Assembly (NCBI GenBank): GCA_034723315.1 | Contig: JAYEOV010000017.1 | Coordinates: forward strand, 6,612 to 70,611 | DNA from: Candidatus Omnitrophota bacterium | GTDB taxonomy: Bacteria; Omnitrophota; Gorgyraeia; Tantalellales; Tantalellaceae | Length of the DNA: 64,000 nucleotides | Direction of reading: 5' to 3' | Part shown: positions 2,620 through 63,564 of the stretch, piece after piece | How positions within the stretch are numbered: the first letter of the stretch is position 1 | How the letters are laid out: each line of letters begins with the position of its first letter | Translations under genes and position numbers: made by a program | The notes under the pieces: generated by a model | Seen by the model: only the letters and a program-made list of their open reading frames with translations | The model's database searches: none | Told to the model about the DNA's origin: nothing

Positions 2620-4049
2620 TGGGTAGTGTTTCTAAGAAGTTATTGTCGAAGGTGAGGAAACTTCCGGATACGCCGGGGGTCTATAAGTTCCTCGATCCGA
2701 AGGGGCGCGTGATCTACGTGGGCAAGGCGAGGCGTCTCCGGCGCCGCGTCGCTTCTTATTTCCGGCCGGGCCGGGCGCGTGACAGCCGCCTGGAGCTTCT
2801 GGTAAGCGAGGTCCGTGACATAGCTTTTATCAGGGCTTCTTCCGAGGCGGAAGCGCTCATATACGAAGCCGGGCTTATAAAGGACCACAAACCCAGGTTC
2901 AATATCGATCTCAAGGACGACAAGTCGTATCCGTTCCTCAAGCTTACGGTGAACGAGAAATATCCACGGCTTTTTCTCACGCGCCGGAGGATCGGGGACG
3001 GAGCCCTTTATTACGGGCCGTATGTCAACGTGAAGCTCCTTAAAGCGGCGTTGTCCTTTATGAAAAAGGTGTTCCAGCTGAGGAGCTGCCGCGTCATGCG
3101 TAAATCCGTCTGTCTTGAGTATCACCTGGGCCAGTGTCTGGGGCCGTGCGAGAAGAAAATAACGGACAGGGAATACGCCGAAACGGTCGATCAGCTCAAG
3201 AAATTCCTTGAAGGGCGGAAGGACGATCTTATACGGTCGCTAGAGAAACAGATGCAGCGGTTTTCCGGGAGGAGGGAATATGAGAAGGCCCTGGCCGTGA
3301 AAAAACGTATTGAGGCCCTTACCGCGGTTCAGCAGCTTCACGACAGGTCGCAGTATCCCGTATACGGGGAGCTTGACGAACTGCAGAACGCGCTGGCCCT
3401 CCCGCGGATGCCGGTGAGGATAGAGTGTTTTGATATTTCAAACATTAGCGGGCAGCAGGCCGTGGGGTCCATGGTAAGGTTCATCGCCGGGAGCCCTCGT
3501 AAATCGGATTACCGGAGATTCCGGATAAAAGGGCGTGAAGGGATAGACGATTACGCCATGATACGCGAAGTCGTCCGCAGGAGGTATTCGCGTCTTATCG
3601 AGGAAGGGAAAGCGCTGCCGGACCTGGTCATGATAGACGGCGGCAAGGGGCATCTTTCCGTGGCAAAGGAGGAGTTCGCGCGGCTGGGGCTGAACGACGT
3701 GCCGGTGGTCAGCATAGCCAAGGAGCATAACCATCTTTACACCGGATCGCGGGAACGGCCCATAAGGCTTTCGCCGGGGTCGCGGCTGCTTCTTCTTGTC
3801 CAGAGGATCAGGGACGAGGCGCATCGTTTCGCCGTGACGTATCACAGGAGGCTGAGGCGCGCCGAGAAGTTCGATACCGGGCTCAGGCGGATAAAAGGTA
3901 TCGGTCCGGCGAGAGAGAGGATGCTCCTGGAGAAGTTCGGGAGCAGGGACAATATACGCCGGGCCTCGGCTGAAAACCTGAAAAAGGCCGGACTGGACGA
4001 ACGCACGGTCCGGACGGTCGTTGAATATTTTTCGGGGACGCCCCACTAG
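2616..4049 (+). CDS. uvrC: Excinuclease ABC subunit C (UvrC), short form
   Basis: GIY-YIG motif GVYKFLDPKGRVIYVGKARRLRRRV, a UVR domain (EYEKALAVKKRIEAL), the UvrC RNase H-like endonuclease region and a C-terminal HhH (RIKGIGPARERMLLEKFG). The start was chosen at the ATGA overlap with the murJ stop; the ORF track start is 2592. Confidence 0.85.
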   Translation: MMGSVSKKLLSKVRKLPDTPGVYKFLDPKGRVIYVGKARRLRRRVASYFRPGRARDSRLELLVSEVRDIAFIRASSEAEALIYEAGLIKDHKPRFNIDLKDDKSYPFLKLTVNEKYPRLFLTRRRIGDGALYYGPYVNVKLLKAALSFMKKVFQLRSCRVMRKSVCLEYHLGQCLGPCEKKITDREYAETVDQLKKFLEGRKDDLIRSLEKQMQRFSGRREYEKALAVKKRIEALTAVQQLHDRSQYPVYGELDELQNALALPRMPVRIECFDISNISGQQAVGSMVRFIAGSPRKSDYRRFRIKGREGIDDYAMIREVVRRRYSRLIEEGKALPDLVMIDGGKGHLSVAKEEFARLGLNDVPVVSIAKEHNHLYTGSRERPIRLSPGSRLLLLVQRIRDEAHRFAVTYHRRLRRAEKFDTGLRRIKGIGPARERMLLEKFGSRDNIRRASAENLKKAGLDERTVRTVVEYFSGTPH

Positions 4050-4146
4050 AAACTAGGGACAGACACTAGTTTCCTATGGAAACTAGTGTCTGTCCCTAGT
4101 TTCTATAGTTTCTAGTCCTCAGGGTGGCACCTAGTGGGGCGTCCCC
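4034..4146. repeat. Nested perfect palindrome: inner 29-bp arms (4046-4074 and 4078-4106, with a 3-nt loop TAT) inside outer 16-bp arms (GGGGACGCCCCACTAG at 4035-4050 and its reverse complement at 4131-4146)
   Basis: Read directly: ctagaaactagggacagacactagtttcc TAT ggaaactagtgtctgtccctagtttctag, flanked by ggggacgcccc and ggggcgtcccc. No T-tract follows it. Confidence 0.8.
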
Positions 4147-5306: not shown

Positions 5307-5338
5307 GAAGAAAATTGTAACGCATTCGTAGATTACAG

Positions 5339-5410
5339 TTCGCGGCCTGGAGGCCGCTCCTACGGGTTATACAGCAACGCATTCGTAGGAGCGGCCTCCA
5401 GGCCGCGAAC
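5339..5410. repeat. Inverted REP doublet: GTTCGCGGCCTGGAGGCCGCTCCTACG at 5339-5365 and its reverse complement at 5384-5410
   Basis: Read directly. Each REP is also preceded by the short direct repeat AACGCATTCGTAG (5321-5333 and 5378-5390). Confidence 0.85.
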
Positions 5411-5926: not shown

Positions 5927-6010
5927 GTTCGCGGCCTGGAGGCCGCTCCTACGTGGTGAGACGGGAGGGTTCGCGGCCTGGAGGCCGCTCCTACGGGTGA
6001 GACGGGAGGA
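5927..6010 (+). repeat. Tandem direct doublet of a 42-bp unit (REP GTTCGCGGCCTGGAGGCCGCTCCTACG + GGTGAGACGGGAGG), 5927-5968 and 5969-6010
   Basis: Read directly. The second unit's GGGAGGA also serves as the Shine-Dalgarno for secA (ATG at 6016). Confidence 0.85.
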
Positions 6011-6015
6011 CTAAA

Positions 6016-9000
6016 ATGTTCGGATTTTTGATGAACCTTTTAAAGAGTATGTTCGGGACGCAGAACGAGCGCGAACTCAGAAAACTGGAGCCTGTGGTCC
6101 TGGAGATAAACGCGCTCGAAGAGGAGTTCTCGTCCCTTTCGGATGACCGGATAAGGGAAAGGGCCGGACGTATAAGGGAAGAGATCAGGCGCGCCCGCGG
6201 GGAAATAAAGGCCGAGATAAATGCGATACGCGAACAGGTCGTCGCGTCCACATCGGAACAGGAGAAGAACAAACACAGGAAACGCCTGAAAGAGGCCAAG
6301 AACAGGGTGCTTGACGAAAGGATACCCGAGGTCTTCGCGGCGGTGAGAGAGGCGGCCAGGAGGACCATTGGGCTCAGGCATTTTGACGTCCAGCTCATGG
6401 GGGGGATCGTCCTGCACCAGGGAAAGATCGCGGAGATGGCAACCGGCGAGGGGAAGACGCTCGTGGCGACGCTGCCTGTCTGCCTGAACACGTTTTCCGG
6501 CGAGACTGTTTATATCATCACGGTGAACGACTATCTGGCCAAGAGGGACAGCGGGTGGATGGGGCCGGTCTATGAATTCCTGGGGCTTTCGGTGGGTGTC
6601 ATACAGCATGACATGAGACCCGAGGAAAAGAAGAAAGCTTACGCGTGCGACGTGGTCTACGGCACCAACAACGAGTTCGGGTTCGATTACCTCAGGGACA
6701 ACATGGTGATAGATAAAAGTGATATGGTCCAGGGGCATCCGAGTTTCGCTATTGTCGATGAGGTCGATAGCATCCTTATTGACGAAGCGAGGACGCCGCT
6801 GATAATATCGGGACCGGTGGATGAAACGAACGAGGCGTACAACCAGATGCGGCCGGTCATCCAGGAAGTGGTGAGGGCCCAGAAGAAGACGGTAGCGGAC
6901 TACATCTCACGGTTCCGTGAAACGTTCCGCGACGGGAAGGAAGACGAGGCGGGCCGGATGCTTTACCTCCTGCACAAGGCCGATCCCAGGAACCGCGAGT
7001 TCCTGGATATCATACTTAAGGACACGCGCGCGAAATCGTTGTTCGACAAGGCGCAGTCCCTGCACGACAGCAAGGTGATGGAGAAGGAGCGTCACGAGCT
7101 TCTTGAACAGCTTTTCTATGTCTTCGACGAGAAGTCGAAAGAGGCGACCTTCAGCGCGAAGGGCCAGGCCCTGATGCGGGAGAAGTTCAACCTGGAGTTC
7201 ATGCTCGAGGATATAGAGGCGAAGCTGGCGGAACTGGCCGAGGCCGAGGAGGGCGTTCCGATGGAGGAGAAAGTCGCCAGGGAGACGGAACTCGTGGCTT
7301 CTTATTCGGACCAGCAGAGAAAGGTGGAAAGCGTCAAGCAGCTGCTGAAAGCGTATATACTTTTTGAGAAAGACGTCGATTACGTCATCAAGGATAACAA
7401 GGTAGTCATTGTGGATACCTTCACGGGAAGGATGATGCCGGGACGCCGTTTCTCGGACGGCATACATGAGGCGATCGAGGCCAAGGAACGCGTCGAGGTG
7501 CAGAGAGAGAGCCAGACGCTTGCCACGATCACACTCCAGAACTATTTTCGCATGTTCGACAAGCTAGCCGGCATGACAGGCACCGCGAAGACAGAGGAGG
7601 GTGAGTTCGAGAATATTTATCTTCTGCCGGTCGTTCAGGTTCCGCCGAACCGTCCTCTGAAACGCGAGAGCATGGCGGATCGCATATACAAAACGGAAAA
7701 GGAAAAATTCGACGCCGTTATAGACGAAATAGCGGATCTGCACGAAAAAGGGCGTCCGCAGCTCGTGGGGACCGTCTCTATAGAAAAGTCCGAGCGGCTC
7801 AGCAAGCTGCTTACCACGCGCGGGATAACGCACAACGTCCTGAACGCCAAGCACCACGAAAAAGAAGCGCACATAATCGCGCAGGCGGGCCGCTACGGCG
7901 CGGTGACGATAGCCACGAACATGGCCGGCAGGGGGACCGACATCCTGCTGGGAGGCAATCCCGAGTTTCTCGCCCGGGACGCGGTGAGCAAGCTGGAGAT
8001 GGACGATCCCGGGGAAATAGAAAAGGCTTTAGACAGGTTCCTCGAGGAGTTCAACAGGAAGACCGAGGACGAGAAACAGAGGGTTCTTGAGTTCGGGGGG
8101 TTGCACGTCCTCGGGACAGAAAGACACGAGGCCAGGAGGATAGACAACCAGCTCCGGGGCCGTTCCGGCAGGCAGGGGGATCCCGGTTCGAGCAGGTTCT
8201 ATCTTTCTCTGGAGGATGACCTGATGAGGATATTCGGTTCCGACAGGATAAAAGGGGTCATGGACCGCCTCGGCATGGAGGAAGGCGAGGTCATCGAGAA
8301 CCCGCTGGTCACGCGTGCCGTGAGAACGGCCCAGACCAGGGTGGAGGGCCAGAACTTTGAGATAAGGAAGCATCTTCTCAAGTACGATAACGTGATGAAC
8401 CAGCAGAGAGAGGTCATATATAGGAGACGGCGCGTTATCCTTGAGGAGACGGACCTGAAAAAAGAGTTTTTTGAAAGTCTCACGGTGGGGTTGGAATCGC
8501 TTCTTCAAAACTGGGAAACGGTACCGGAGCCGGCCGACTTTGCCAAACAGGTCATGTACCATTTTGTGATAAACGTCAAACCCGATATGCTTGAGGGCAA
8601 GAGGGCGGAGGAGGTCATTGATCTGGTAATGGGTATCGCCGAGAAAAATTATTCAGCAAGGGAGAAGTTCCTCGGGGAAGAAAGGATGAGGGAGCTTGAG
8701 AAGATGGTCATGCTCTCGGTGATAGATTCCAACTGGAAGGAGTATCTCAGGGAGATCGACGATCTCAGGGAGGGGATCTCCTGGAGGGCGTACGCGCAGA
8801 AAGATCCCTTCATTGAGTTTCAGCATGAGGGCTTCAAGATGTTCACGGAACTGATGGTGAAGATAGACGAGCAGACGGCGGAACGCGTCATGAAGATCTC
8901 CGCGATGGAGGAACAGTACAGAAAAAGCGTTTTCCAGCCCGAAAAAGAGACCCTTGAGCACAGGGGGTATTCCGCCATAGGGACCCCGGCCGCCGGCCAG

Positions 9001-9295: not shown

Positions 9296-10843
9296 ATGTT
9301 GCGTATTTTTAACGTGAAAAAACACTGGAAGAAAATACTGCTTGCCGCTCTGTCCGGTATGCTTTGCTTTCTTGCCTTTCCGCCTTTCGAGTTCGCCCTT
9401 CTCGGGTGGGTATGCGTCATCCCTCTTTTATTCGCGATAAGAGGGAGCGGCCCCAGACGGGCTTTCTGGTACGCGTATCTGTCCGGCCTGGTATTTTTCG
9501 GATGTCTTCTGTCCTGGCTTGTGAACGTGACAGTCCCGGGGACGATCATACTCGTGCTGATCCTTTCGGCCTTTTACGGTCTTTTCGGGCTGGTAACCGG
9601 TATCGCTTTTAAATATTCGATGGACTTTCTGCTCCTGCCTTTTGTATGGGTGGTACTGGAATATATACGCAGTCATATCCTTACGGGTTTCCCCTGGGGG
9701 ATCCTGGGTTATTCACAGTACAGGAACATGAAGCTTATACAGATCGCCGATTTTACCGGGGCTTACGGCGTCTCCTTCGTGCTGACGGTCTTCAACGTCG
9801 CTCTTTTCACTCTGCTGATCAGGTCCAAAAGAAGGGTGCCCTGCATGGTGATCGCCCTGCTTTTCATGCTCATGTCCACCAGTTACGGGATGTACAGGCT
9901 CAACAACCTGAACAGCTGGGGCTATTCGCGCATGAGCGTTGTGCAGGGAAATATCCCACAGCAGATGAAATGGGACTCCCGGTACGCGGAAGAGATAATA
10001 GACGTCTACAGCGGCCTGACCAGGCAGGCGGCCAAGGATTCGCCAGACATGATAATATGGCCCGAGACGGCCTACCCGTACCTTGTCGGGGCGAGCGTTG
10101 ATCCCGCCGAAGAGATCAATTCGCTTGCCGCGGAAACGGGCATCCCGATCCTCGCGGGCATCGTTTCTTCCGGAAGTGCTGGTTACTATAACAGCGCGAT
10201 CCTTTTCACCGGCGGGAAAAAATTAAAAGAAGTATACCGCAAAATTCATCTTGTCCCTTTCGGGGAATACGTGCCGTTTGGCAGGTATTTTGATTTTTTG
10301 CGCGGTCACATAGATAAACCCATAGGCGATTTTGAAAGAGGCGATGAATACACTCTCTTTAAGGTCAAGTCCATGCAGTTCTCGGGGCAGAAAGGTGACG
10401 GTTCCGTTATGCGCCGTATGAACTTTTATAAGTTCGGCGTCCTGATATGCTTTGAGGACATATTCCCTTATCTGGCGAGGACCTTCGTTCGGGAAGGGGC
10501 CGGTTTCCTTGTGAATATCACCAACGACGCCTGGTTCGGGGAAACGGGAGCGCCCGCGCAGCATCTGCAGGCGTCGGTTTTCCGGGCGGTGGAGAACAGG
10601 GTGCCCGTCGTGCGTGCGGCCAATACGGGGATATCATGTTTTGTGGATTTCACGGGCGAGATCGTATCGATTCTGGAAGAGGAAGGGAAAAGTATCTTTG
10701 TCAGAGGCTACGACACAGCCGCCGTGAATATGTGCGCGAGGCGCACTTATTACACGCACTACGGCGATATTTTCGTCTATTTCTGCGGGTTCATCATCGT
10801 GCTCCTGGTAGTAATGGAGGCCTTTCTAGCGCGCAGAAAATAA
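9296..10843 (+). CDS. lnt: Apolipoprotein N-acyltransferase Lnt
   Basis: N-terminal polytopic membrane domain plus a CN-hydrolase domain (WPETAYPY; catalytic Cys in GVLICFED). Its 515 aa length is typical for Lnt. Confidence 0.85.
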   Translation: MLRIFNVKKHWKKILLAALSGMLCFLAFPPFEFALLGWVCVIPLLFAIRGSGPRRAFWYAYLSGLVFFGCLLSWLVNVTVPGTIILVLILSAFYGLFGLVTGIAFKYSMDFLLLPFVWVVLEYIRSHILTGFPWGILGYSQYRNMKLIQIADFTGAYGVSFVLTVFNVALFTLLIRSKRRVPCMVIALLFMLMSTSYGMYRLNNLNSWGYSRMSVVQGNIPQQMKWDSRYAEEIIDVYSGLTRQAAKDSPDMIIWPETAYPYLVGASVDPAEEINSLAAETGIPILAGIVSSGSAGYYNSAILFTGGKKLKEVYRKIHLVPFGEYVPFGRYFDFLRGHIDKPIGDFERGDEYTLFKVKSMQFSGQKGDGSVMRRMNFYKFGVLICFEDIFPYLARTFVREGAGFLVNITNDAWFGETGAPAQHLQASVFRAVENRVPVVRAANTGISCFVDFTGEIVSILEEEGKSIFVRGYDTAAVNMCARRTYYTHYGDIFVYFCGFIIVLLVVMEAFLARRK

Positions 10844-10896
10844 GGGGACAGCGCCCCTATTTCTTCAATAAATAGGGGCGCTGTCCCCTTATTTTG
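10842..10896 (+). terminator. Intrinsic terminator built from two inverted copies of the GGGGACAGCGCCCCTATTT unit (21-bp arms, loop CTTCAAT, then TTATTTT)
   Basis: aaggggacagcgcccctattt cttcaat aaataggggcgctgtcccctt atttt, immediately after the lnt stop. Confidence 0.75.
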
Positions 10897-11643: not shown

Positions 11644-11730
11644 TGAAAGAAAGGGCAAGTATTTCCCCCCTTTGAAAGAAAGGGCAAGTATTTCCCCCTT
11701 TGAAAGAAAGGGCAAGTATTTCCCCCCTTT
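11644..11730 (+). repeat. Three tandem direct repeats of a 28-29 bp unit TGAAAGAAAGGGCAAGTATTTCCCCC(C)T
   Basis: Read directly at about 11644, 11673 and 11702. The last copy merges into the left 28-bp inverted repeat at 11727. Confidence 0.85.
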
Positions 11731-12156
11731 GAAAAAGGGGGTTAGGGGGATTTTCTTTTTAGGATGTTAAAATACAACGTGAATTTAAAACACAAAGCTC
11801 GTCGATTACGCAGGGAAATGACAGATAGTGAGCGAGCGTTATGGACGAGGTTACGGGGAAAACAAATTTTAGATATTCAATTTTATCGGCAGAAGCCCAT
11901 TGGGGGCTATATTGTAGATTTTTATGCATCCCAGGCAAGGATTGTAGTAGAAGTGGATGGGGCACAGCATATGGAAACAGATCAGGAACAAAAAGATGCA
12001 CAACGAGATATATACTTGAAGAACGAGGGATTATATGTATTGCGTTTTAACAATCTACAAGTTTTGCAAGAGCTGGATTCTGTTATGGAAGTGATTTATC
12101 AAGCAGTAAAAGAAAGATTAGAAACTAAAAAATCCCCCTAACCCCCTTTTTCAAAG
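11727..12156. mobile_element. DUF559 endonuclease-like ORF bracketed by perfect 28-bp inverted repeats (CTTTGAAAAAGGGGGTTAGGGGGATTTT at 11727-11754; reverse complement at 12129-12156); candidate small selfish cassette
   Basis: Both arms read directly and are identical. The right arm overlaps the last 4 codons and the stop of the ORF. The interior is AT-rich compared with the flanking genes. Confidence 0.5.
11764..12141 (+). CDS. DUF559 (Vsr/restriction-endonuclease-like fold) domain protein
   Basis: 125 aa. ERALWTRLRGKQILDIQFYRQKPIGGYIVDFYASQARIVVEVDGAQH...VLRFNN matches the DUF559 pattern (ExxLWxxLR...FRRQxPIGxYIxDFxCxxxxLvIELDGxxH...vlRF). Confidence 0.7.
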   Translation: MLKYNVNLKHKARRLRREMTDSERALWTRLRGKQILDIQFYRQKPIGGYIVDFYASQARIVVEVDGAQHMETDQEQKDAQRDIYLKNEGLYVLRFNNLQVLQELDSVMEVIYQAVKERLETKKSP

Positions 12157-12315
12157 GGGGGAGGGGAGTAAGTATAACGCATTCATTTAAATAGAGGGCC
12201 TCTGGGAAACCGTGCAAGCCTAATAGGCTATTAAGAAGGTTCCCTGCCAGGAAAGCGGGAATCCACTGTTGGCGGTTAGCAGTGATACGCGATACGGAAC
12301 ACGCGATACGAAAAA

Positions 12316-21031: not shown

Positions 21032-21481
21032 GTGAAGACGATACACGTTAAAATAAAACGCAAAGAAAGCGCGAAAGACCTTCCGATCCCGACCTACGCT
21101 ACCAGCGGATCCAGTGGAGTGGATCTCTATGCCGACGTTGAAGGCGAGACAGAGATCTCTCCGGGAGAAATAAAGCTGATATCCTGCGGCATTTACATTG
21201 AACTTCCCGATGGATATGAAGCTCAAATAAGGCCCAGGAGCGGTTTGGCTTTGAAACACGGCATTACCTTGGTGAACACTCCCGGGACCATCGACAGTGA
21301 TTACCGCGGCCTGATCAACCTCATAGTCATAAATCTCGGCAAAGAGGATTTTCTCCTCAGGCGCGGACAAAGACTGGCCCAGATGGTTTTTCGCGAGATC
21401 ACACGCGCCGAGTTCCGGGAAACGGAAGAAATCGGCGAGACTGAGAGATCGCACGGCGGGTTTGGGCACACGGGTATTTAG
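21032..21481 (+). CDS. dut: dUTP diphosphatase
   Basis: 149 aa (GTG start). Motifs [49 protein letters not shown] and RIAQMVF. Confidence 0.9.
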
Positions 21482-21485
21482 TGCA

Positions 21486-21544
21486 ACGTTAAGTAAATAA
21501 TGTTGCATTGATAATCATAACCTTATTTGTTTAACAAGACATTA
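21486..21544 (+). repeat. About 60-bp imperfect-palindrome element, copy A (CGTTAAGTAAATAATGTTGCATTGATAATCATAACCTTATTTGTTTAACAAGACATT)
   Basis: Near-identical to the reverse complement of 48989-49048 (about 3 mismatches). Internal hairpin GTTAAGTAAATAA / TTATTTGTTTAAC. Confidence 0.75.
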
Positions 21545-25648: not shown

Positions 25649-25676
25649 AGTAGGGCACCTTTAAAGGTGCCCTACT
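25649..25676. repeat. 28-bp perfect palindrome AGTAGGGCACCTTTAAAGGTGCCCTACT, copy 1
   Basis: Read directly. An identical copy lies at 28776-28803. Confidence 0.85.
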
Positions 25677-25730
25677 TGCTTAATTTAATGTAGTAGAAAA
25701 TTCCTTATTGAGAACACATTAACCAAAGCT

Positions 25731-25827
25731 GTAGGAGCGGCCTCCAGGCCGCGAACCCCCTAGTGTTAATTTTGTTAGCGGCCAGGAGGCCGCTCCTACG
25801 GGATAAGGCCTGGAGGCGGCTCCTACG
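25731..25827. repeat. Cluster of three REP copies (same family as at 5339-6010): full reverse-orientation copy 25731-25756, forward copy with a 1-nt deletion 25778-25800, partial forward copy 25808-25827
   Basis: gtaggagcggcctccaggccgcgaac / gcggccaggaggccgctcctacg / ggcctggaggcggctcctacg, read directly upstream of rimO. Confidence 0.8.
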
Positions 25828-25866
25828 CGATAAGTAAAAAGTCCACCCGAAGGGCGTTAAGTTGCC

Positions 25867-28264: not shown

Positions 28265-28775
28265 AGGCCATTTCATAAACCCCTTTAAGTGCTGTTTGGA
28301 CCACTCCTACCAGGGGACGTAAAATTTGCTCCAGCGGCAAATTTTACTCTATGATCTCCTCGCAACCCGCCTCCGCCGAATAATTTTATGCTATCGGACT
28401 TCGGCGGGACCAAGCTTGCTCGTCGATCAAAGCCCCTGCACGGAGTAGCCCAAACAGCACTTTTCCTCAGATCTCACAGCCTGACCGCCAAATTCTGCCA
28501 AAGCATATAAGTATATACTCAATATTGCTAATGTTAATCATATAGGTTAAATATTAGTCTAATGACTGCATTTATTCTGTTATATAGCTGAATTTAGAAG
28601 TATATACTCAAAAAAATCTTTCAGAAACCTTGACTTTTATTTTTTCCCCATTAAACTTTAGAAGAGTTATCCAATTGGTACCAATACATACTAAATTAAG
28701 ACAATACATACAAAATTAAACTTCCACGGACTTACGTCCATGGCATTAGCCTGGTGCAAGCTTCGCTTGTCCTAA

Positions 28776-28803
28776 GTAGGGCACCTTTAAAGGTGCCCTA
28801 CTT
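28776..28803. repeat. 28-bp perfect palindrome AGTAGGGCACCTTTAAAGGTGCCCTACT, copy 2
   Basis: Identical to 25649-25676. The two copies bracket rimO-pgsA-pgpA and the 28.3-28.7 kb non-coding stretch. Confidence 0.85.
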
Positions 28804-36480: not shown

Positions 36481-36663
36481 TTTAGGAAACTAATTTGAAA
36501 CAATATCTTTAACCGGATAGACAAAGGAAGTTTCCGTGAGAATCGGGACGCTGCCCAGCAACGGTGATCTTGATATGAGTTAAAAGTCAAGGAGCCCGGT
36601 CTATTGGCTATTCCGGAAAGTACCTTCTGGGGTAAGGGAAAAGATATTATGATAAGTAGTATG

Positions 36664-36688
36664 CCGACCCCAGGGGGTCGGTTTTTTT
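36664..36688 (+). terminator. Leader-embedded intrinsic terminator / attenuator hairpin (CCGACCCC..GGGGTCGG + T7) about 25 nt upstream of the metE start
   Basis: ccgaccccagggggtcggttttttt, read directly. A terminator sitting between a promoter and the start codon implies riboswitch-type or attenuation control. Confidence 0.55.
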
Positions 36689-36711
36689 ATTTGCGTAAAG
36701 GAGGAGAAAAA

Positions 36712-38913
36712 ATGAAAACATATGCATATGGCTTTCCAAGATTAGGTAAGAAAAGAGAGTTCAAATCAGCTATCGAGGATTACTGGAAAGGGAACATCAG
36801 CGAGGATAAGCTTATATCATGGATGTTCAGGCTGGAAAAGCAAAGACTTTCCGAATATAAAAAATACGTTGATTTATTCCCAAAAGGTGAGTTTACATTT
36901 TACGACAACATGTTTGATATGGCGTTAATGTTCGGCGTGTATAAGGCAAAAGGGTTGAACCGGTATTTTTCTTTTGGCAGAGGCAGGAATGCTCTTGAGA
37001 TGAAAAAGTATTTCAACACGAACTATCATTACCTCGTGCCTGTTATTAAAAAGGGGCAAAAGTTCAGGGTGGCTTGGAACAAACCACTTGTATATCATGA
37101 AAAATCTTCCCAAAAAAGAAAACCGGTTGCCATCATGGGTCCTTATACGTTTCTTAAGCTTAGCAGGGTTGAAGGGAGTTTTGATAAGACTTTCAATGAA
37201 CTTTGCGCGGCGTATAAAAAGTTGTTTGTGCAGTTTGAGAAGGCCGGAATAACTTCCGTGCACATGGAGGATCCCGCTTTTTGTCTCGACGTGACTGCTA
37301 AAGAAATAAAGGCTATTGTAAAGAATTACAAAAAGATGATTTCCCGTGATCTGGAAGTTAATCTCATAACCTATTATGATAGCGTGGATTTTCTTAAAGA
37401 ATTGTATAAGATTCCGTTCGCTGCGATCGGGCTTGATTTTGTATCCGGGGAGAGTAACATTGCCAATCTTGAGAAGACCGGCTTTCCGGAGGGGATGAAC
37501 CTGGTCTGCGGCATCGTTGACGGCCGTAATGTGGGTCGGTCCGATATAATGGCGAAGGTGCGTCTCTTGAAAAGAATAAAAAAAACCGCAAGGATCAATG
37601 ACGACAGAATATATGTCTCTAACAGCGCGCCACTCTTTCACCTGCCCATATCTCTTGATAATGAAACTAATATGAGCGCAAAACATAAAAACATTCTCAG
37701 TTTCGCTAAGGAAAGACTGTATGAACTTGGCCTTATACCCAAAGCTTATAGTGGTGATACGAAGGAAGCGGAATTATGGAGCAAAGCGGTCAAGGAAAGC
37801 CAACCTGTAAAACCGGGAAAGGTCTTCGATACGGTTTCACTTAAAGAAAGCGTTTACTCCCGAAGAAAAAAAGTTCACCAGGAGGAACTCGATCTTCCGT
37901 TCTTTCCCACCACCACGATAGGTAGTTTTCCTCAGGATAGTGAAGTGAGAAAAATGAGGCTGGATTATCGTAAAGGCAGATTATCTAAAACAAAATACAA
38001 GAGCTTCATAGGCGGTAGGATAAAAGATCTTGTGAAAAAAGAGGAAGAAATAGGACTTGATGTCCTTGTGCACGGTGAGTTCGAAAGAACGGACATGGTT
38101 GAATTCTTTGCGCAGAAACTGGATGGTTTTGTAACGACAGAAAGCGGCTGGATCATATCTTACGGAACAAGGGTCTACAGACCACCTATAGTAGTAGATA
38201 AGATCGGCAGGACAAAACCGCTTACAGCAGGGGAGATAACACATGCCGATCATTTAACGCATAAACCTGTTAAGGGTATTTTTACGGGACCGGTAACTAT
38301 ACTTGCCTGGGGTTTTTGTGTGAGGACAGATCCAATATACAAAGTAGCCTTTGAACTTGCGAAAGCGCTGAACGAAGAGGCAAAAGACCTTGTCAAGAAA
38401 GGTATAAAAATAATACAGGTGGATGAACCCGCGATAAAGGAATTTTCCCCTATAAAGAAAAGAATGAAGAAGGCATATTTTGGCTGGGCAATAAGAAGCT
38501 TTAACATGGTGACTAAGCTTCCCGAAAGGGTTCAAATCCATACTCACATGTGTTATTCGGAGTTTGCCGAGATCATTGATTGGATCCTGAAGATGAATTT
38601 CGATGTTATAACAATAGAAACAGCGAGAGAGAAGGGTAAAGTCCTTGAAACTTTTTTCAGAGCTGGATTTAAACGTGACATAGGTCCCGGGTTATGGGAT
38701 ATTCACTCAAAATATCCCGCTGAGGAAAGGACAATAAAAACAATATTAAATAAAAGCATAAAGTTTTTCGGCCCGGAACATATCTGGATGAACCCGGATT
38801 GCGGGCTGAAGACCAGGAATTGGGAAGAAACAGAATTATCGCTTGAACGCATTGTAAAAATAGCGAAACAATACAGAAAAAGGTTACTAAAGGGGTCAAG
38901 TCTTAAAATTTAA
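36712..38913 (+). CDS. metE: Cobalamin-independent methionine synthase MetE; the last 6 codons (SSLKI*) are supplied by the left terminal inverted repeat of the downstream IS element
   Basis: About 734 aa with a two-barrel architecture. The C-terminal catalytic barrel carries the Zn ligands (H...C.E...C; IHTHMCYSE, DCGLKTR). The start is the ATG at 36712 after a GGAGGAG SD. The ORF-track start at 36604 would read through the leader terminator. Confidence 0.85.
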   Translation: MKTYAYGFPRLGKKREFKSAIEDYWKGNISEDKLISWMFRLEKQRLSEYKKYVDLFPKGEFTFYDNMFDMALMFGVYKAKGLNRYFSFGRGRNALEMKKYFNTNYHYLVPVIKKGQKFRVAWNKPLVYHEKSSQKRKPVAIMGPYTFLKLSRVEGSFDKTFNELCAAYKKLFVQFEKAGITSVHMEDPAFCLDVTAKEIKAIVKNYKKMISRDLEVNLITYYDSVDFLKELYKIPFAAIGLDFVSGESNIANLEKTGFPEGMNLVCGIVDGRNVGRSDIMAKVRLLKRIKKTARINDDRIYVSNSAPLFHLPISLDNETNMSAKHKNILSFAKERLYELGLIPKAYSGDTKEAELWSKAVKESQPVKPGKVFDTVSLKESVYSRRKKVHQEELDLPFFPTTTIGSFPQDSEVRKMRLDYRKGRLSKTKYKSFIGGRIKDLVKKEEEIGLDVLVHGEFERTDMVEFFAQKLDGFVTTESGWIISYGTRVYRPPIVVDKIGRTKPLTAGEITHADHLTHKPVKGIFTGPVTILAWGFCVRTDPIYKVAFELAKALNEEAKDLVKKGIKIIQVDEPAIKEFSPIKKRMKKAYFGWAIRSFNMVTKLPERVQIHTHMCYSEFAEIIDWILKMNFDVITIETAREKGKVLETFFRAGFKRDIGPGLWDIHSKYPAEERTIKTILNKSIKFFGPEHIWMNPDCGLKTRNWEETELSLERIVKIAKQYRKRLLKGSSLKI

Positions 38914-39951
38914 CTTTAGCTTGCGTGTTTAAGTATTAAATGGTATGATGTTTGATCATGGCACGACCTTTACGAATTGAATATCCGGGCGCCTGGTATC
39001 ACGTGATGAACCGCGGCAGGCGAAGAGAGCAGATTTTTTTTGATGAAAAAGATCGAGTTCTTTTTGTGGATATATTAGGAGATTGCACTAGACTTTTTAA
39101 TCTGGAAATACACGCCTATTCGTTGATGCCAAACCACTATCATTTATTAGTACGCACGCCTATCGCGAACCTTTCAAGAGCAATGAGACACCTGAACGGG
39201 GTTTATACACAAAAGATCAATTATCGTCATAAGTATGAAGGCAGTCTTTTTAAGGGAAGGTTTAAATCAATAGTCATAGAAGAAGAATCATACTTTCTTG
39301 AACTATTAAGGTATATTCACAGGAATCCATTAAAGGCGAAGATCGTGGAAAAGATCATTGAGCATAAATGGACAAGCCACAGGGCATATATGATAAAAAA
39401 AGAGCGGCCCGAATGGCTGAAAGTAAATACAGCTTTAATAAAATTCAGCCAGCATGAGAATGCGGCAAAAAGGAAACTGGACGCGTTTGTGCGGGAAAAA
39501 GTACCGGTGGAAATAGAACGTATATTAGATGGAATAAAGTGGCCGGCGATACTGGGCGGAAAGCAGTTTCAGGAAAAGATCAAAGAAAAAATAAAGGGAG
39601 AAAAGATCGACATCAGGGAAGTGCCGCAACATAAAGAGATCTGTAGTAGATTAACCGCGAAGGATGTTGCTGAGGTGCTGGTGAGAGAGCAAAAGAAGTG
39701 GGATGAAAATGTTTTCAGCGGACGGAAGAAGAGGATTTATACCGGGAAGAGACGTGCGTTTGTGTACGTGTGCCGGGAATATCTATATGCGGTGAACAGA
39801 GATATATGCGAAGCTCTGGGAGATATTTCTTCTGCCGCCGTATCGATTTTGTATACGCAAGCCGTGGAAAAGGTGAAAAAGAAAGAGGATTTGTACGAAG
39901 AAGTAAAGGGGATCGTTGATTTGCTAAAGTTAAATTTTAAGACTTGACCCC
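38892..39951 (+). mobile_element. IS200/IS605-like element (about 1060 bp) with perfect 29-bp terminal inverted repeats GGGGTCAAGTCTTAAAATTTAACTTTAGC (38892-38920; reverse complement at 39923-39951), carrying one Y1 transposase gene
   Basis: Both TIRs read directly. The left TIR overlaps the metE stop. The right TIR overlaps the transposase stop and, on the other strand, the stop of the XRE-cupin gene. Confidence 0.75.
38958..39947 (+). CDS. IS200/IS605-family (COG1943-like) HUH Y1 transposase with a C-terminal extension
   Basis: HUH motif SLMPNHYHLLV and a catalytic Tyr region YIHRNPLKAKIV. 330 aa and AT-rich. Confidence 0.75.
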   Translation: MARPLRIEYPGAWYHVMNRGRRREQIFFDEKDRVLFVDILGDCTRLFNLEIHAYSLMPNHYHLLVRTPIANLSRAMRHLNGVYTQKINYRHKYEGSLFKGRFKSIVIEEESYFLELLRYIHRNPLKAKIVEKIIEHKWTSHRAYMIKKERPEWLKVNTALIKFSQHENAAKRKLDAFVREKVPVEIERILDGIKWPAILGGKQFQEKIKEKIKGEKIDIREVPQHKEICSRLTAKDVAEVLVREQKKWDENVFSGRKKRIYTGKRRAFVYVCREYLYAVNRDICEALGDISSAAVSILYTQAVEKVKKKEDLYEEVKGIVDLLKLNFKT

Positions 39952-40503
39952 CCTAATTGCAGGCGGTGCGATAATGCATATCGCCTGGGCCTCGATTTTA
40001 GCTTTGTTTTTAAAGGTATGGGGCAGGGAGGCGTCAAAGTACAGGCTGTCGCCGTTTTTTAACGTGTAGGTTTTATCGCCTACAGCAGCTTCGAGGTTCC
40101 CCGAGATCACGTATATGAATTTTTCCACCCCTGTCTTGTTCTGTTCTTTCTGTGTCTGGCCTCCGCCGGAGATCTTCATCATAAGCGGCATGATCTTTTT
40201 ATCAAAAGTTTTCGTGACAAGCAGCTCGTACTTTGCCTTACGCGTGTGGATGAAATGTTCCGTCCGTTTATCCTGTGAGACCACCTCCACGGTCTTGGAT
40301 TTGTCCTCGATCTCGCGGTAAAGTTCCGTGATAGAAGTGTTAAGGGCTTTACAAATGCGGTTGTGGGAATCGAGGGTGCCGGTCATCTTGTCGTTTTCCA
40401 TGCGGCTCAGCGTGGCAAGGGCTACTCCGCTTTTTCCAGAAAGTTCTTCCAGCGTCATTTCACGTTCTTTACGTAACTGGCGGATCCTTTTCCCTATTTT
40501 CAT
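39937..40503 (-). CDS. XRE-family HTH transcriptional regulator with a C-terminal cupin domain
   Basis: N-terminal HTH (IRQLRKEREMTLEELSGKSGVALATLSRMEN) and C-terminal cupin_2 (GNLEAAVGDKTYTLKNGDSLYFDASLPHTFKN). It is the only convincing minus-strand gene in the window. Confidence 0.8.
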   Translation of the reverse strand: MKIGKRIRQLRKEREMTLEELSGKSGVALATLSRMENDKMTGTLDSHNRICKALNTSITELYREIEDKSKTVEVVSQDKRTEHFIHTRKAKYELLVTKTFDKKIMPLMMKISGGGQTQKEQNKTGVEKFIYVISGNLEAAVGDKTYTLKNGDSLYFDASLPHTFKNKAKIEAQAICIIAPPAIRGVKS

Positions 40504-48988: not shown

Positions 48989-49048
48989 AATGCCTTGTTA
49001 AACGAATAAGGTTATGATTATCAATGCGACATTATTTACTTAACGCTC
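48989..49048 (-). repeat. About 60-bp imperfect-palindrome element, copy B (inverted relative to copy A at 21486-21544)
   Basis: The reverse complement reads ggagCGTTAAGTAAATAATGTCGCATTGATAATCATAACCTTATTCGTTTAACAAGGCATT, about 95% identical to copy A. Confidence 0.75.
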
Positions 49049-49095
49049 CACTAGATTACATTTTTTCATTTTAAATTCCGCACTTTTAATTAATT

Positions 49096-50104: not shown

Positions 50105-50180
50105 GGGGCAGTAGCTCAGCTGGGAGAGCATCACGTTCGCAACGTGGGGGTCGTGGGTTCGAATCCCATCTGCTCCACCA
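50105..50180 (+). tRNA. tRNA-Ala (anticodon CGC)
   Basis: Manual fold. Acceptor stem GGGGCAG/CTGCTCC with the G3:U70 alanine identity pair, D arm GCTC-AGCTGGGA-GAGC, anticodon stem TCACG/CGTGG with loop TTCGCAA (anticodon CGC), T arm GTGGG-TTCGAAT-CCCAT, discriminator A, and encoded CCA. Confidence 0.9.
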
Positions 50181-50183
50181 TGA

Positions 50184-50267
50184 AAATAGGGGGACAGCGC
50201 CCCTATTTTTCCCCCTATTATTTTTTCTTTTTTCTCCGAAAAATAGAGGCGCTGTCCCCCCATTTTT
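50184..50267. terminator. Two inverted copies of the GGGGACAGCGCCCCTATTT palindromic unit (50184-50211 and 50239-50267) downstream of tRNA-Ala; the first has a T-run and probably acts as a terminator
   Basis: aaaatagggggacagcgcccctattttt ... aaaaatagaggcgctgtccccccattttt. It is the same unit family as the lnt terminator at 10842-10890. The small ORFs called here on both strands translate the repeat and are not genes. Confidence 0.65.
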
Positions 50268-53867: not shown

Positions 53868-55190
53868 TTGCCGGTGAACGGTGGTCCATTAACTTTAACT
53901 GTGAAAGAACCAAAATTCGCGATAAAAACCCTGGGTTGCAAGGTCAACCAGTACGAGGAACAGGTCCTTAGGGAGAACCTTCAGCGTTTCGGTTTCAGCG
54001 AGAGCGAGCCCCGGACCGCTGACATTTTTATTGTCAATTCATGCACTGTCACCGGCAAGGCCGACCTGAAAACAAGACGATTGATACGGCAGGTCAAAAG
54101 AGGGAACCCGGAGATAAAGATCTTTGTCACCGGCTGTTACGCCGTCTTTGAAAAGGATATAGAAAGGCTCAGTTACATGCCGGAAGTGTTTAAGGTGATC
54201 CCCGCGAAAGATAAGCTGCGCCTGCCGGTCATGATCAAGGATCTCTTCGGCATAAAGCGCGGGGACATGGGCGTGAGGGAGCAGATATCCCGGTTCAACT
54301 CTCATAGCAGGGCTTTCCTGAAAATACAGGATGGATGCGATCAAAACTGCGCCTATTGTAAGGTAAGCCTTGTCAGGGGCCCTTCAAGGTGCAGGGACGA
54401 ACGGGAAGTCATAGGAGAGGTAACGCGACTTTCAAAAGCGGGGTATAGGGAGATCGTCCTGACCGGTATATGTCTCGGCTCCTGGAAAGGGAGCAAGGGG
54501 CAGAGTATTTCACGTCTTTTAAAGGAGATGGACGGAATGGACGGGATGTTCAGAATACGCCTCAGCTCTATCGAACCGGATTTAATAGATGATCTCCTGA
54601 TCGGAACGATCGCAGGGTCAAGGAGGATCTGCAGGCACCTCCATATCCCTCTTCAGAGCGGGTCTGACCGGGTATTGAAAAGGATGAACAGAAGATATGA
54701 TACGGAACGGTTCAGGGAACTTATCCGGAATATACGAGGACAGATGCCTTTTGCCGGGATCACCATGGATATCATCACGGGTTTCCCGGGCGAGGACGGG
54801 ACGGATTTTTACAGGACCATGATGCTTGTCAAGGAGACAAAACCATCACGGCTTCATGTTTTTAAATACAGCGACAGGGAGGGAACAAGGTCCTTCGATC
54901 TAGAGGGAAAAGTCCACGTTCGAACAGCGAAAGAACGGGCAAAACGTTTGATAGAGGCTGGTAAAGAGCTTCAGGCCGGGTTTTGCCGCAATTTTGCGGG
55001 TAGAAGAGTAGAAGTGCTTGTAGAGAAAAAGAACGGGACCATGCTCGAGGGGTATACAGGCGAGTATGTCAGGGCGAGAATGGAAGGGTATCAAGCATCT
55101 GAAGGTGATCTGATAAGCATAGAAGTGAATGATATTGATGAAGAAACCCCTTGTGTAGTGAACAAAAAGGGGTCAAGTCTTAAAATTTAA
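53868..55190 (+). CDS. mtaB: MtaB-like tRNA methylthiotransferase (MTTase N-domain, radical SAM, TRAM); the last codons (KGSSLKI*) are supplied by a MITE insertion
   Basis: TLGCKVNQYE N-domain, radical SAM CDQNCAYC, and a C-terminal TRAM domain. A GTG at 53901 is an alternative start. The C-terminal tail is identical to the MetE tail. Confidence 0.75.
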   Translation: MPVNGGPLTLTVKEPKFAIKTLGCKVNQYEEQVLRENLQRFGFSESEPRTADIFIVNSCTVTGKADLKTRRLIRQVKRGNPEIKIFVTGCYAVFEKDIERLSYMPEVFKVIPAKDKLRLPVMIKDLFGIKRGDMGVREQISRFNSHSRAFLKIQDGCDQNCAYCKVSLVRGPSRCRDEREVIGEVTRLSKAGYREIVLTGICLGSWKGSKGQSISRLLKEMDGMDGMFRIRLSSIEPDLIDDLLIGTIAGSRRICRHLHIPLQSGSDRVLKRMNRRYDTERFRELIRNIRGQMPFAGITMDIITGFPGEDGTDFYRTMMLVKETKPSRLHVFKYSDREGTRSFDLEGKVHVRTAKERAKRLIEAGKELQAGFCRNFAGRRVEVLVEKKNGTMLEGYTGEYVRARMEGYQASEGDLISIEVNDIDEETPCVVNKKGSSLKI

Positions 55191-55244
55191 CTTAACAAGC
55201 ATATAGGGGTCAAATCGTTAAGTTAAATTTTAAGACTTCACCCC
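55169..55244. mobile_element. 76-bp MITE derived from the IS200/IS605-like element at 38892-39951 (left end GGGGTCAAGTCTTAAAATTTAACTTAAC 55169-55196; inverted right end 55217-55244 with 1 mismatch)
   Basis: Both ends read directly. The 22 terminal bp are identical to the TIR of the full element and there is no internal transposase. Confidence 0.75.
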
Positions 55245-55273
55245 TATATTCCCGCTTATAATATGATATACTT

Positions 55274-55855
55274 TTGATTCTATTAGAAGGGAAAGTCTTG
55301 CCTGAGATATTAAAGAGTTTTAACTGGCTTGATATACTTTTCGTAATCCTTTTGCTAGGAATGATTTATAAAGGATCACGAACGGGTGTCGGTGGTCAGA
55401 TCCTTTCTCTTGTTGGCTGGTTCGTTTTACTTTTTATTTCTATAGGATATTATCGCCTTTTATCTGAAGCGATATTTGGTTTTTTGTTACAAAAATGGGC
55501 AAAACCTGTATCGTTTTTTCTTATTTCAGTTATCATATTCACGGTCATCAAGTTTCTTGAGAGAGTTTTTAATGTAATAAGCGACGGGGAACTCGCGATC
55601 ATAGAGAGAATTGGCGGGGCTCTTGTCGCTTCTTTAAGGGCCTGTTTATTATTCGGTGTCATAGGGATCCTGCTTTTGCTGATTCCCATTGATTACGCGC
55701 GTATTACGGTCACAGAAAAGTCGAGGACGGGGATGTTCTTTGTTGATATTGACGCGCAGATCTACAGCTGGATATCGGATGTCACGGGTGTCCCCGCGAA
55801 AAGAACAAAAGATGAACTTCTGAACGAATTTCTGGCCACTGAAAAAGAGAAGTAA
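55274..55855 (+). CDS. CvpA-family (colicin V production) membrane protein
   Basis: N-terminus FNWLDILFVILLLGMIYKGSRTGVGGQILSLVGWFVLLF matches the CvpA pattern (NwlDiiil...rRGfv.e..sl.gwi.a), with 4 TM helices. The start codon is uncertain. Confidence 0.55.
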   Translation: MILLEGKVLPEILKSFNWLDILFVILLLGMIYKGSRTGVGGQILSLVGWFVLLFISIGYYRLLSEAIFGFLLQKWAKPVSFFLISVIIFTVIKFLERVFNVISDGELAIIERIGGALVASLRACLLFGVIGILLLLIPIDYARITVTEKSRTGMFFVDIDAQIYSWISDVTGVPAKRTKDELLNEFLATEKEK

Positions 55856-60225: not shown

Positions 60226-60300
60226 AATGAACGTTCCTTTTCCGGACCGGCTGTACGGATCAACAGAAATGTAGATATTATTTTTTAATAAAACATTTAA

Positions 60301-60424
60301 GGATCCATTTCATAACCCCGTTCATTGCGAGGCTGAGCGAAAAAGCCATTAACTTGTTGCTCCAAAAACGCAGTCAATGATTTTTGCAGCCAGCGGAAGT
60401 AGAACAGGGTTATGAAATGGGTTC
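60301..60424. mobile_element. MITE-like element, short variant (about 124 bp), with terminal inverted repeats CCATTTCATAACCCCGTTC ... GAACAGGGTTATGAAATGG
   Basis: Both ends read directly. The internal ends match the long variant at 63274-63451 in inverted orientation (gaggctgagcgaaaaagccattaac; cagtcaatgatttttgcagccagcgg). Confidence 0.7.
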
Positions 60425-60440
60425 TAAGGAAGGAGAGGAG

Positions 60441-63263: not shown

Positions 63264-63273
63264 GATCGGTTTA

Positions 63274-63451
63274 GAACCCATTTCATAACTCTGTTCTACT
63301 GCGGCTGGCTGCAAAACCCATTGACCGCGTTTTCGGGGCAAAATGTCCTCAACGTAGCGCATCGGCTACGTTTCCGGGCATTTTGCCCCTCAGGCCTTGT
63401 CAATGGCCTTTTCGCTCAGCCTCGTAACGAACGGTGTTATGAAATGGGTTC
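63274..63451. mobile_element. MITE-like element, long variant (178 bp), with ends GAACCCATTTCATAACTCTGTTC ... GAACGGTGTTATGAAATGGGTTC and an internal about 70-bp palindrome
   Basis: Ends read directly. The internal segment ggggcaaaatg...cgtagc-gcatcg-gctacg...cattttgcccc is self-complementary. The small ORFs called here on both strands are repeat artefacts. Confidence 0.7.
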
Positions 63452-63564
63452 TAAAGATTCACCTTTAATTATTCAACTTAACGGTATAGTATATGTACCT
63501 GGCAGGTTATAAGCGAAACCGGATTACTAGTAGTGCTTGAAATTGTAATATTTGGGAGGGATAT

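Follow-up and report, generated by a model that had tools for sequence, protein, structure and literature searches.

A terminal inverted repeat dimer supplies the end of mtaB in a Candidatus Omnitrophota contig and shares its ends with a nearby TIRYT element

The dimer at the 3′ end of mtaB

The stretch of contig JAYEOV010000017.1 that was analyzed, 64,000 nucleotides of a Candidatus Omnitrophota genome, is called the window in the following. Its genes and repeat features that are of importance here are compiled in Table 1. The gene mtaB, the product of which was identified with the model TIGR01579 (401 bits, cutoff 357), is followed by cvpA in the same orientation, and a 76-bp repeat dimer supplies the final six codons and the stop codon of mtaB. 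A full-length mobile element with the same ends is present 15 kb upstream of the dimer, directly at the end of metE (product identified with PRK05222, 775 bits); the window contains this one dimer and this one full element.

Table 1. Coordinates of the dimer, the full-length element and the adjoining genes (positions in the window unless another locus is named)
Feature	Position	Strand	Remarks
76-bp TIR dimer (MITE/REPIN-like hairpin, non-coding)	55169..55244	.	From repeat anatomy and folding
Left arm of the dimer	55169..55196	+	Encodes mtaB codons GSSLKI and the TAA stop (55188-55190); 25 nt as in the ends of the large element
Right arm of the dimer	55217..55244	-	One mismatch (C/C, arm position 6)
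Loop of the dimer, 20 nt	55197..55216	.	Contains GGGGTCAAATC (55206-55216), a third but partial copy of the terminal motif
mtaB, tRNA ms2t6A methylthiotransferase	53868..55190	+	Final 22 nt within the dimer
cvpA, Colicin V production protein family	55298..55855	+	TTG start set by alignment with relatives
TGATATACT, putative extended -10 box	55264..55272	+	Conserved upstream of cvpA in relatives
Putative cvpA promoter region	Window 55244-55272; L129 3865-3895; L131 3930-3960; L134 2808-2840		
Full-length element (TIRtron), 1,060 bp	38892..39951	+	Perfect 29-nt terminal inverted repeats, 38892-38920 and 39923-39951
TIRYT gene, 329 aa	38958..39947	+	HUH/Y1 transposase with DnaA-domain-IV-like C-terminus; TGA stop within the right repeat
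metE	36604..38913	+	Final 22 nt (GSSLKI-stop) within the left repeat of the large element
HTH-cupin regulator gene	39937..40503	-	Final 15 nt (GVKS-stop) within the right repeat of the large element

A preliminary description of the locus had reported a 76-bp unit with the ends of an IS element at this site, built from two arms with one mismatch and a spacing of 20 nt, and its coordinates and sequences proved to be correct. A repeat finder recovered the arms at 55168-55196 and 55217-55245 (29 nt, 97% complementary, 20 nt between them), and the left arm of the dimer was complementary to the right arm of the large element in 25 of 25 positions. The 22-mer GGGGTCAAGTCTTAAAATTTAA has four matches in the 64-kb window, at 38892 (+), 39951 (-), 55169 (+) and 55244 (-, with one mismatch), while the chance level is zero, as 100 dinucleotide shuffles did not contain a single match. 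The unit is short and non-coding, and its arms agree in 25 of 25 nt with the ends of the large element (38892-39951); it is a TIR dimer and functionally an analogue of a MITE or a REPIN.

As single-stranded DNA the dimer folds into a stem of 27 base pairs (-22.1 kcal/mol, z -10.5), and as RNA, together with its flanks, it forms a strong hairpin (-40.4 kcal/mol, z -6.7). The single arms remain unfolded (0 to -0.4 kcal/mol, z > 0), so that they are not palindromic REPs. An alternative small hairpin within the dimer (55206-55244) was discarded, because with a z score of -0.26 it was no better than the shuffles. No intrinsic terminator was called at the dimer, a T-run is absent, and a search of the dimer against Rfam matched no family. 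The interior of the dimer was also aligned with the full element, and outside of the repeat the subterminal alignment was weak and gapped, which did not bear out a deletion derivative. As the 20-nt interior is not convincingly taken from the large element, the term "TIR dimer" fits better; the earlier designation "non-autonomous miniature of the IS" holds for a short non-coding derivative with the same ends, but not for the interior. Neither the dimer nor the full element is accompanied by a direct repeat that could represent a target-site duplication.

A comparison of the mtaB 3′ ends in related genomes, which had been recommended earlier, revealed four syntenic relatives without the element between mtaB and cvpA. 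All four have retained the order Memo/AMMECR1-rsmE-mtaB-cvpA-318aa, with mtaB-cvpA spacers of 50-207 nt. A search of the mtaB-cvpA region for the repeat core was negative throughout in L129 and L131, and in the alignment no repeat was seen in the mtaB-cvpA spacers of L133 and L134. These are not close relatives, as the nearest MtaB homolog is 62% identical, and an empty site in a closely related genome was not found. In the homologs the conserved ...PCL[VI]A is followed by another 2-20 residues; because these ends vary, the insertion lies in a variable tail. Excision of 55169-55244 in silico results in an MtaB of 440 aa that ends with ...VVNKNIFPLII-stop, and the empty mtaB-cvpA site is expected to read ...AACAAAAATATATTCCC.

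The sequence ATATGATATACT upstream of cvpA is invariant in all five genomes. Three relatives have a TTGACW box 17 nt before TATACT (TTGACW-N17-TATACT, with a TG extension), and in L134 the stop codon of mtaB is located inside this -35 box. In the window the right end of the dimer is followed at a distance of 19 nt by TGATATACT, and at 22 nt the TATACT hexamer begins. This end of the dimer occupies the position of the -35 box of the relatives, and thus the -35 box has been displaced.

The full-length element, its transposase and its class

The two repeats of the large element are 100% complementary and 1002 nt apart, and they enclose one gene. The encoded protein matched Y1_Tnp of Pfam with 49.3 bits. 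Its best NCBIfam match was the REP-associated tyrosine transposase (REP_Tyr_transpos) with 72.2 bits, which is below the cutoff of 80, and the NCBIfam model for IS200 yielded 25.6 bits at a cutoff of 55. In an alignment of 34 homologs the residues H60-Y61-H62, Y119 and N123 were invariant, and the HUH motif and the catalytic tyrosine aligned with the HMH and YIYINP segments of 4er8. A profile of the 34 homologs linked residues 11-142 to TnpA-REP of E. coli (4er8, E 2e-4) and residues 235-327 to domain IV of DnaA (3pvp, E 1.1e-3; 1j1v, E 7e-3). The latter matches were obtained with the family profile alone, as neither a PDB search with the single sequence nor a Pfam search with the C-terminal half gave a hit; many homologs have a precomputed match to PF08299. 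A database protein of 100% identity, encoded on a contig of 96,957 nt, carries the annotation "transposase" and belongs to a Candidatus Omnitrophota MAG. With 38,900 clusters at 50% identity (E <= 1e-3) and 1,691 at 1e-30, the family is very large. What had been called an IS element is therefore a mobile element with the same inverted ends as the dimer, but it belongs neither to the DDE-type IS elements nor to the canonical IS200 group: it is a TIRYT/TIRtron, i.e., it encodes an HUH Y1 tyrosine transposase that is related to the REP-associated transposases, and it has terminal inverted repeats.

Three genes of the window, metE, mtaB and the HTH-cupin gene, stop within ends of the element. The repeat contains stop codons in two of the three inward frames, TAA at 11 nt and TAA at 18 nt from the GGGTCA core. 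According to the list of open reading frames, MetE ends with ...RLLKGSSLKI-stop and MtaB with ...VNKKGSSLKI-stop, and the same tail of MtaB is found in the NCBI protein P0121, which stems from the same contig. The 5′ start of metE is uncertain, because the homology begins at residue 37. The HTH-cupin protein ends with ...AIRGVKS-stop, and GVKS-stop is contributed by the right repeat in the second frame. The tail KGSSLKI-stop had been described as identical and element-encoded in MtaB and MetE, which applies strictly to GSSLKI-stop, but not to the shared K codon, which consists of AA from the flank and the first G of the element. The left flanks of both elements have nothing more than AAA in common, i.e., the identity extends 3 nt beyond the repeat.

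No precise excision of the full element gave short ends back to metE and to the cupin gene at once. Wherever within +/-3 nt the boundaries of 38892-39951 were set for its removal, one of these two convergent genes read 30-70 codons into the other. The lack of a clean excision indicates that the insertion was not a simple cut-in, or that the flanks were trimmed later.

Elements of the IS200/IS605 group make use of HUH/Y1 chemistry and probably of single-strand intermediates, they generate no target-site duplication, and their miniature derivatives are known as PATEs. The IS200 TnpA is a protein of about 130-150 aa, and the elements have subterminal hairpins and lack terminal inverted repeats. 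The window element has the HUH/Y1 family, the absence of a target-site duplication and, probably, single-strand intermediates in common with them; in contrast, its protein has 329 aa and its terminal repeats of 29 nt are perfect. Classical MITEs are likewise comparable in part: the window dimer resembles bacterial MITEs and palindromic elements in being short, in its inverted repeats, in its position at a coding end, in the addition of codons and in the RNA hairpin, whereas classical MITEs originate from DDE transposons and duplicate their target site, which was not seen at the window dimer. Among the elements that alter gene ends, the accessible text of PMC3733652 cites in-frame insertions of Rickettsia RPE, intragenic REPs and NEMIS/Correia of Neisseria.

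In the REPIN/RAYT system (Bertels and Rainey, 2011, PMC3116915; Nunvar et al., 2010) a Y1 gene is also situated between inverted repeats, and short hairpin-forming doublets are thought to be mobilized in trans. REPs, however, are individually palindromic, GTAG-tagged and extragenic, and they are present in tens to hundreds of copies. In contrast, the window arms do not fold alone, have no GTAG at either end and overlap coding ends.

The closest agreement is with a class that has been published and little studied, and to which the window element belongs. In the accessible text of Di Nocera et al. (2013; PMC3733652), RAYT-like genes with terminal inverted repeats are named "TIRYT" and the units "TIRtrons"; the motif GGGGWSAS is common, the repeats overlap the 3′ end of the gene, and repeat copies are found as singles, dimers and groups. 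The corresponding text of Quentin et al. (2018; PMC6006769) treats TIRYTs as subclass 2.1 of TnpA-REP with a C-terminus similar to Bac_DnaA_C. Like the members of this class, the repeats of which begin with GGGGWSAS, the window element encodes a Y1 transposase of the RAYT type that is about 320-330 aa long and has a DnaA-like HTH at its C-terminus; its gene is flanked by terminal inverted repeats, one of which overlaps the gene 3′ end, and dimers of the repeat are found elsewhere. The window repeat starts with GGGGTCAA and matches 7 of the 8 positions of GGGGWSAS. The family consensus GGGGTCAG, to which most of the relatives found conform, matches all 8, with G at the last position in 77% of the ends. 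The accessible text of the two papers does not name Omnitrophota as a host phylum (a text search of PMC6006769 for "Omnitrophica" was negative), and it does not mention a systematic donation of stop codons to flanking genes (PMC3733652, PMC6006769). In the literature that was searched, the terms TIRYT and TIRtron occurred solely in these two papers, the text of which does not print the repeat sequence, and no biochemical study of any TIRYT was found.

The repeat family in other genomes

The 22-mer GGGGTCAAGTCTTAAAATTTAA, which had been proposed for a genome-wide tally of copies, was absent from the GTDB representative genomes and had one other match in a metagenome collection, a full-length relative. 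Homologous full-length elements, the proteins of which are 56-75% identical, have the same repeat core GGGTCARGTCTTAA, and again the stop codon of the gene lies in the right repeat. A scan of the GTDB representative genomes with GGGTCARGTCTTAANNNTTNAC yielded at least 117 stretches in at least 58 assemblies. The hosts among the matches listed were Aminicenantes, Thermodesulfobacteriota, Aerophobetes, Nitrospirota, Planctomycetota, Eubacteriales, WOR-3, Omnitrophota and others; viral contigs had three single matches, which do not indicate carriage by phages.

Among the matches listed there were at least 60 head-to-head dimers including that of the window, with lengths of 50-256 bp and a mode of 90 bp (24 copies), and at least 8 distinct full-length elements of about 1.02-1.06 kb. 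One MAG of the Aminicenantes contained at least 19 dimers. Short dimers are thus recurrent and present in multiple copies in the family, which supports the designation "non-autonomous miniature". The consensus repeat of the family has 27 nt, GGGGTCAGGTCTTAACATTTRACATTT. Its flanks are A-rich (39-47% A at positions -2 to -6), and apart from the A-richness the family flanks showed no fixed target motif and no target duplication.

Open reading frames of at least 100 codons entered the repeat at 59 of the 194 ends that were examined among the matches listed. The majority (48/59) stopped within the repeat, 23 with GV[RK]S-stop and 23 with GS[GS]L[NK]x-stop, in the same two frames as the genes of the window. 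A gene stop was present in the repeat at 24.7% of the 194 ends, compared with 3.5% at random positions of the same loci, for which positions up to 30 nt upstream of such an ORF stop were counted. The genes that were identified with certainty encode TsaD, GlgE, a Cys/Met PLP enzyme and an AAA/DUF4143 ATPase; a few long reading frames in GC-rich loci look spurious, and therefore the numbers of donated tails are approximate. The remodelling of gene ends by the element, which had been deduced from MtaB and MetE, is thus corroborated by the third gene of the window and by these 48 reading frames. In the family TAA at +11 does not vary, and about 89% of the ends have T[A/G]A at +18. A depletion of the third frame, which lacks a stop, was not statistically convincing in a rough chi-square test (23:23:about 12), and selection is not claimed on this basis. 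Proteins of many uncultivated phyla end with the element-coded peptides GSGLNI, GVRS or GSSLKI. Such tails are not ancestral, nor do they reflect homology in the usual sense, and alignments of C-termini and the calling of stop codons can be misled by them.

An extra internal copy of the terminal hexamer was found in 28 of the 60 dimers among the matches listed, while about 2 were expected. Most of these dimers belong to one lineage, whereas the window, L100 and L026 represent separate lineages. The sequence GGGGTCARATCGTT is common to the window dimer (55206-55219) and L100 (about 7436-7455), and dimers of the Aminicenantes, e.g., L029 7034-7123, have an internal extra motif as well.

A homolog of the transposase, P0016, was detected in 8 metagenome contigs, always in the same gene context. 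It was considered as a sign of recent transposition and discarded in view of the single context of all copies; the presence at one locus in 8 contigs indicates that some members of the family are stable and not visibly mobile. L003 (751-2049) and L004 (741-2039) contain the same transposase, the same element and the same right flank (99.4% identical). Their left flanks are unrelated and diverge at the left repeat, for which either a rearranged element end or a chimeric assembly could be responsible.

Origin of the dimer and further repeats of the window

Most probably the dimer is a non-autonomous, two-copy inverted terminal repeat of the TIRYT element that was inserted into the variable tail of mtaB and closed the gene. 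It would have landed in the C-terminal tail, and as the repeat carries stops in two inward frames, a host gene that is entered would be closed after 4-7 codons and remain functional. Two convergent genes, metE and the HTH-cupin gene, would have been closed in the same way by the full copy; GSSLKI-stop is common to MetE and MtaB because the repeat is read in the same frame in both. In single-stranded DNA the arms would pair, so that both ends, with their GGGG/CCCC boundaries, may meet at the base of the hairpin. There the Y1 enzyme would cut and rejoin the ends, by analogy with IS200/IS605 and REP/RAYT, and the DnaA-like helix-turn-helix domain may help to recognize the repeat. Insertions would survive where they are least harmful, and the two stops in the repeat would make the last codons of genes a site of this kind.

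An alternative that we regard as improbable is a REPIN-RAYT system in the strict sense, in which a domesticated single-copy transposase would maintain REP doublets that serve the host, e.g., as stabilizers of mRNA 3′ ends. The best NCBIfam match and the profile match to TnpA-REP would agree with it, as would the single transposase gene copy of the window, the homolog that is kept at one locus across samples, and the strong RNA hairpin directly after the gene. However, single arms that do not fold alone are not those of a REP, the GTAG tag is absent, and the score stays under the RAYT cutoff (72 versus 80). Moreover, there is one dimer in 64 kb, compared with genuine GTAG REP doublets of another family at three sites of the window, and a host benefit is not in evidence.

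It is far less probable that the identical tails originated by segmental duplication or gene conversion between the two loci, or that they are an artefact of the assembly of a MAG. The sequence is indeed a metagenome-assembled contig, and at both left junctions the identity includes the AAA next to the repeat, but A-rich flanks are typical of the family and the shared AAA is therefore unremarkable. The flanks are otherwise unrelated, the shared segment has a length of just 25-28 nt, and the same architecture is found in more than 100 independent occurrences. The preliminary description had named a similarity that is limited to two loci by segmental duplication as a possible refutation, and this reading is contradicted by the repeat ends in all the other stretches and assemblies that were retrieved. 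A terminator or attenuator that evolved locally between the co-oriented genes mtaB and cvpA and resembles the element ends by chance is the least credible reading, as for all the strength of the hairpin the chance expectation is 0, the T-run, a terminator call and an Rfam match are all lacking, the relatives have no such structure at this site, and the identity of 25/25 nt with the element ends and the family-wide distribution effectively refute it.

Insertion of a TIRYT-derived dimer is thus the preferred explanation, and the case in the window is a clean illustration, ordinary and unsurprising, of a type of bacterial mobile repeat that is already known. The class is very large, and the dimers found here offer defined natural substrates on which the handling of terminal inverted repeats by Y1 enzymes could be studied. 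It is tempting to go one step further, although we consider this extension rather unlikely: GGGGTCAGGTCTTAACATTTRACATTT may have been selected as a "soft-landing" module in a single family that is very widespread across phyla, in which the near-invariant stops in two inward frames (TAA at +11, and TAA/TGA at +18 despite the A/G variation) and the long hairpin would let dimers colonize the last codons of essential genes. The TIRYT would move the dimers by a so far undescribed Y1 mechanism that relies on paired terminal repeats and a DnaA-like DNA-binding domain, not on subterminal hairpins.

The window also contains further repeats. GTAG-tagged REP doublets, GTAGGAGCGGCCTCCAGGCCGCGAAC, are located at 5338-5410 (arms of 27 nt, 100% complementary, 19-nt spacer), 5927-5995 and 25731-25835; they form a REPIN-like family that is distinct from the TIR dimer, and a RAYT gene that matches this family was not seen in the window. 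The members of a second palindromic repeat family, AAAATAAGGGGACAGCGCCCCTATTT, are found at 10837-10895 and 50183-50266, with arms that are 93-97% complementary, and the latter copy directly follows tRNA-Ala (50105-50180). Two identical copies of a perfect 29-nt palindrome, AGTAGGGCACCTTTAAAGGTGCCCTACTT, at 25649-25677 and 28775-28803, are positioned around a miaB-like/pgsA/pgpA block. Long inverted repeats at 60297-60427 and 63271-63455 (76 nt at 87% and 57 nt at 86%) are separated by about 2.8 kb; the genes between them have housekeeping functions (NIL domain, FAA hydrolase, D-Tyr-tRNA deacylase), and thus the region is not an IS. An inverted repeat of 68 nt, 21476-21543 and 48989-49056, is 91% complementary over a distance of 27 kb and is not a tRNA. 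Three tandem units of 28-29 nt, TGAAAGAAAGGGCAAGTATTTCCCCCCTT, were observed at 11644-11754 and 12129-12162 together with a perfect 34-nt inverted repeat 374 nt apart, and at 4047-4105 a perfect 28-nt palindrome, TAGAAACTAGGGACAGACACTAGTTTCC, has a loop of 3 nt.
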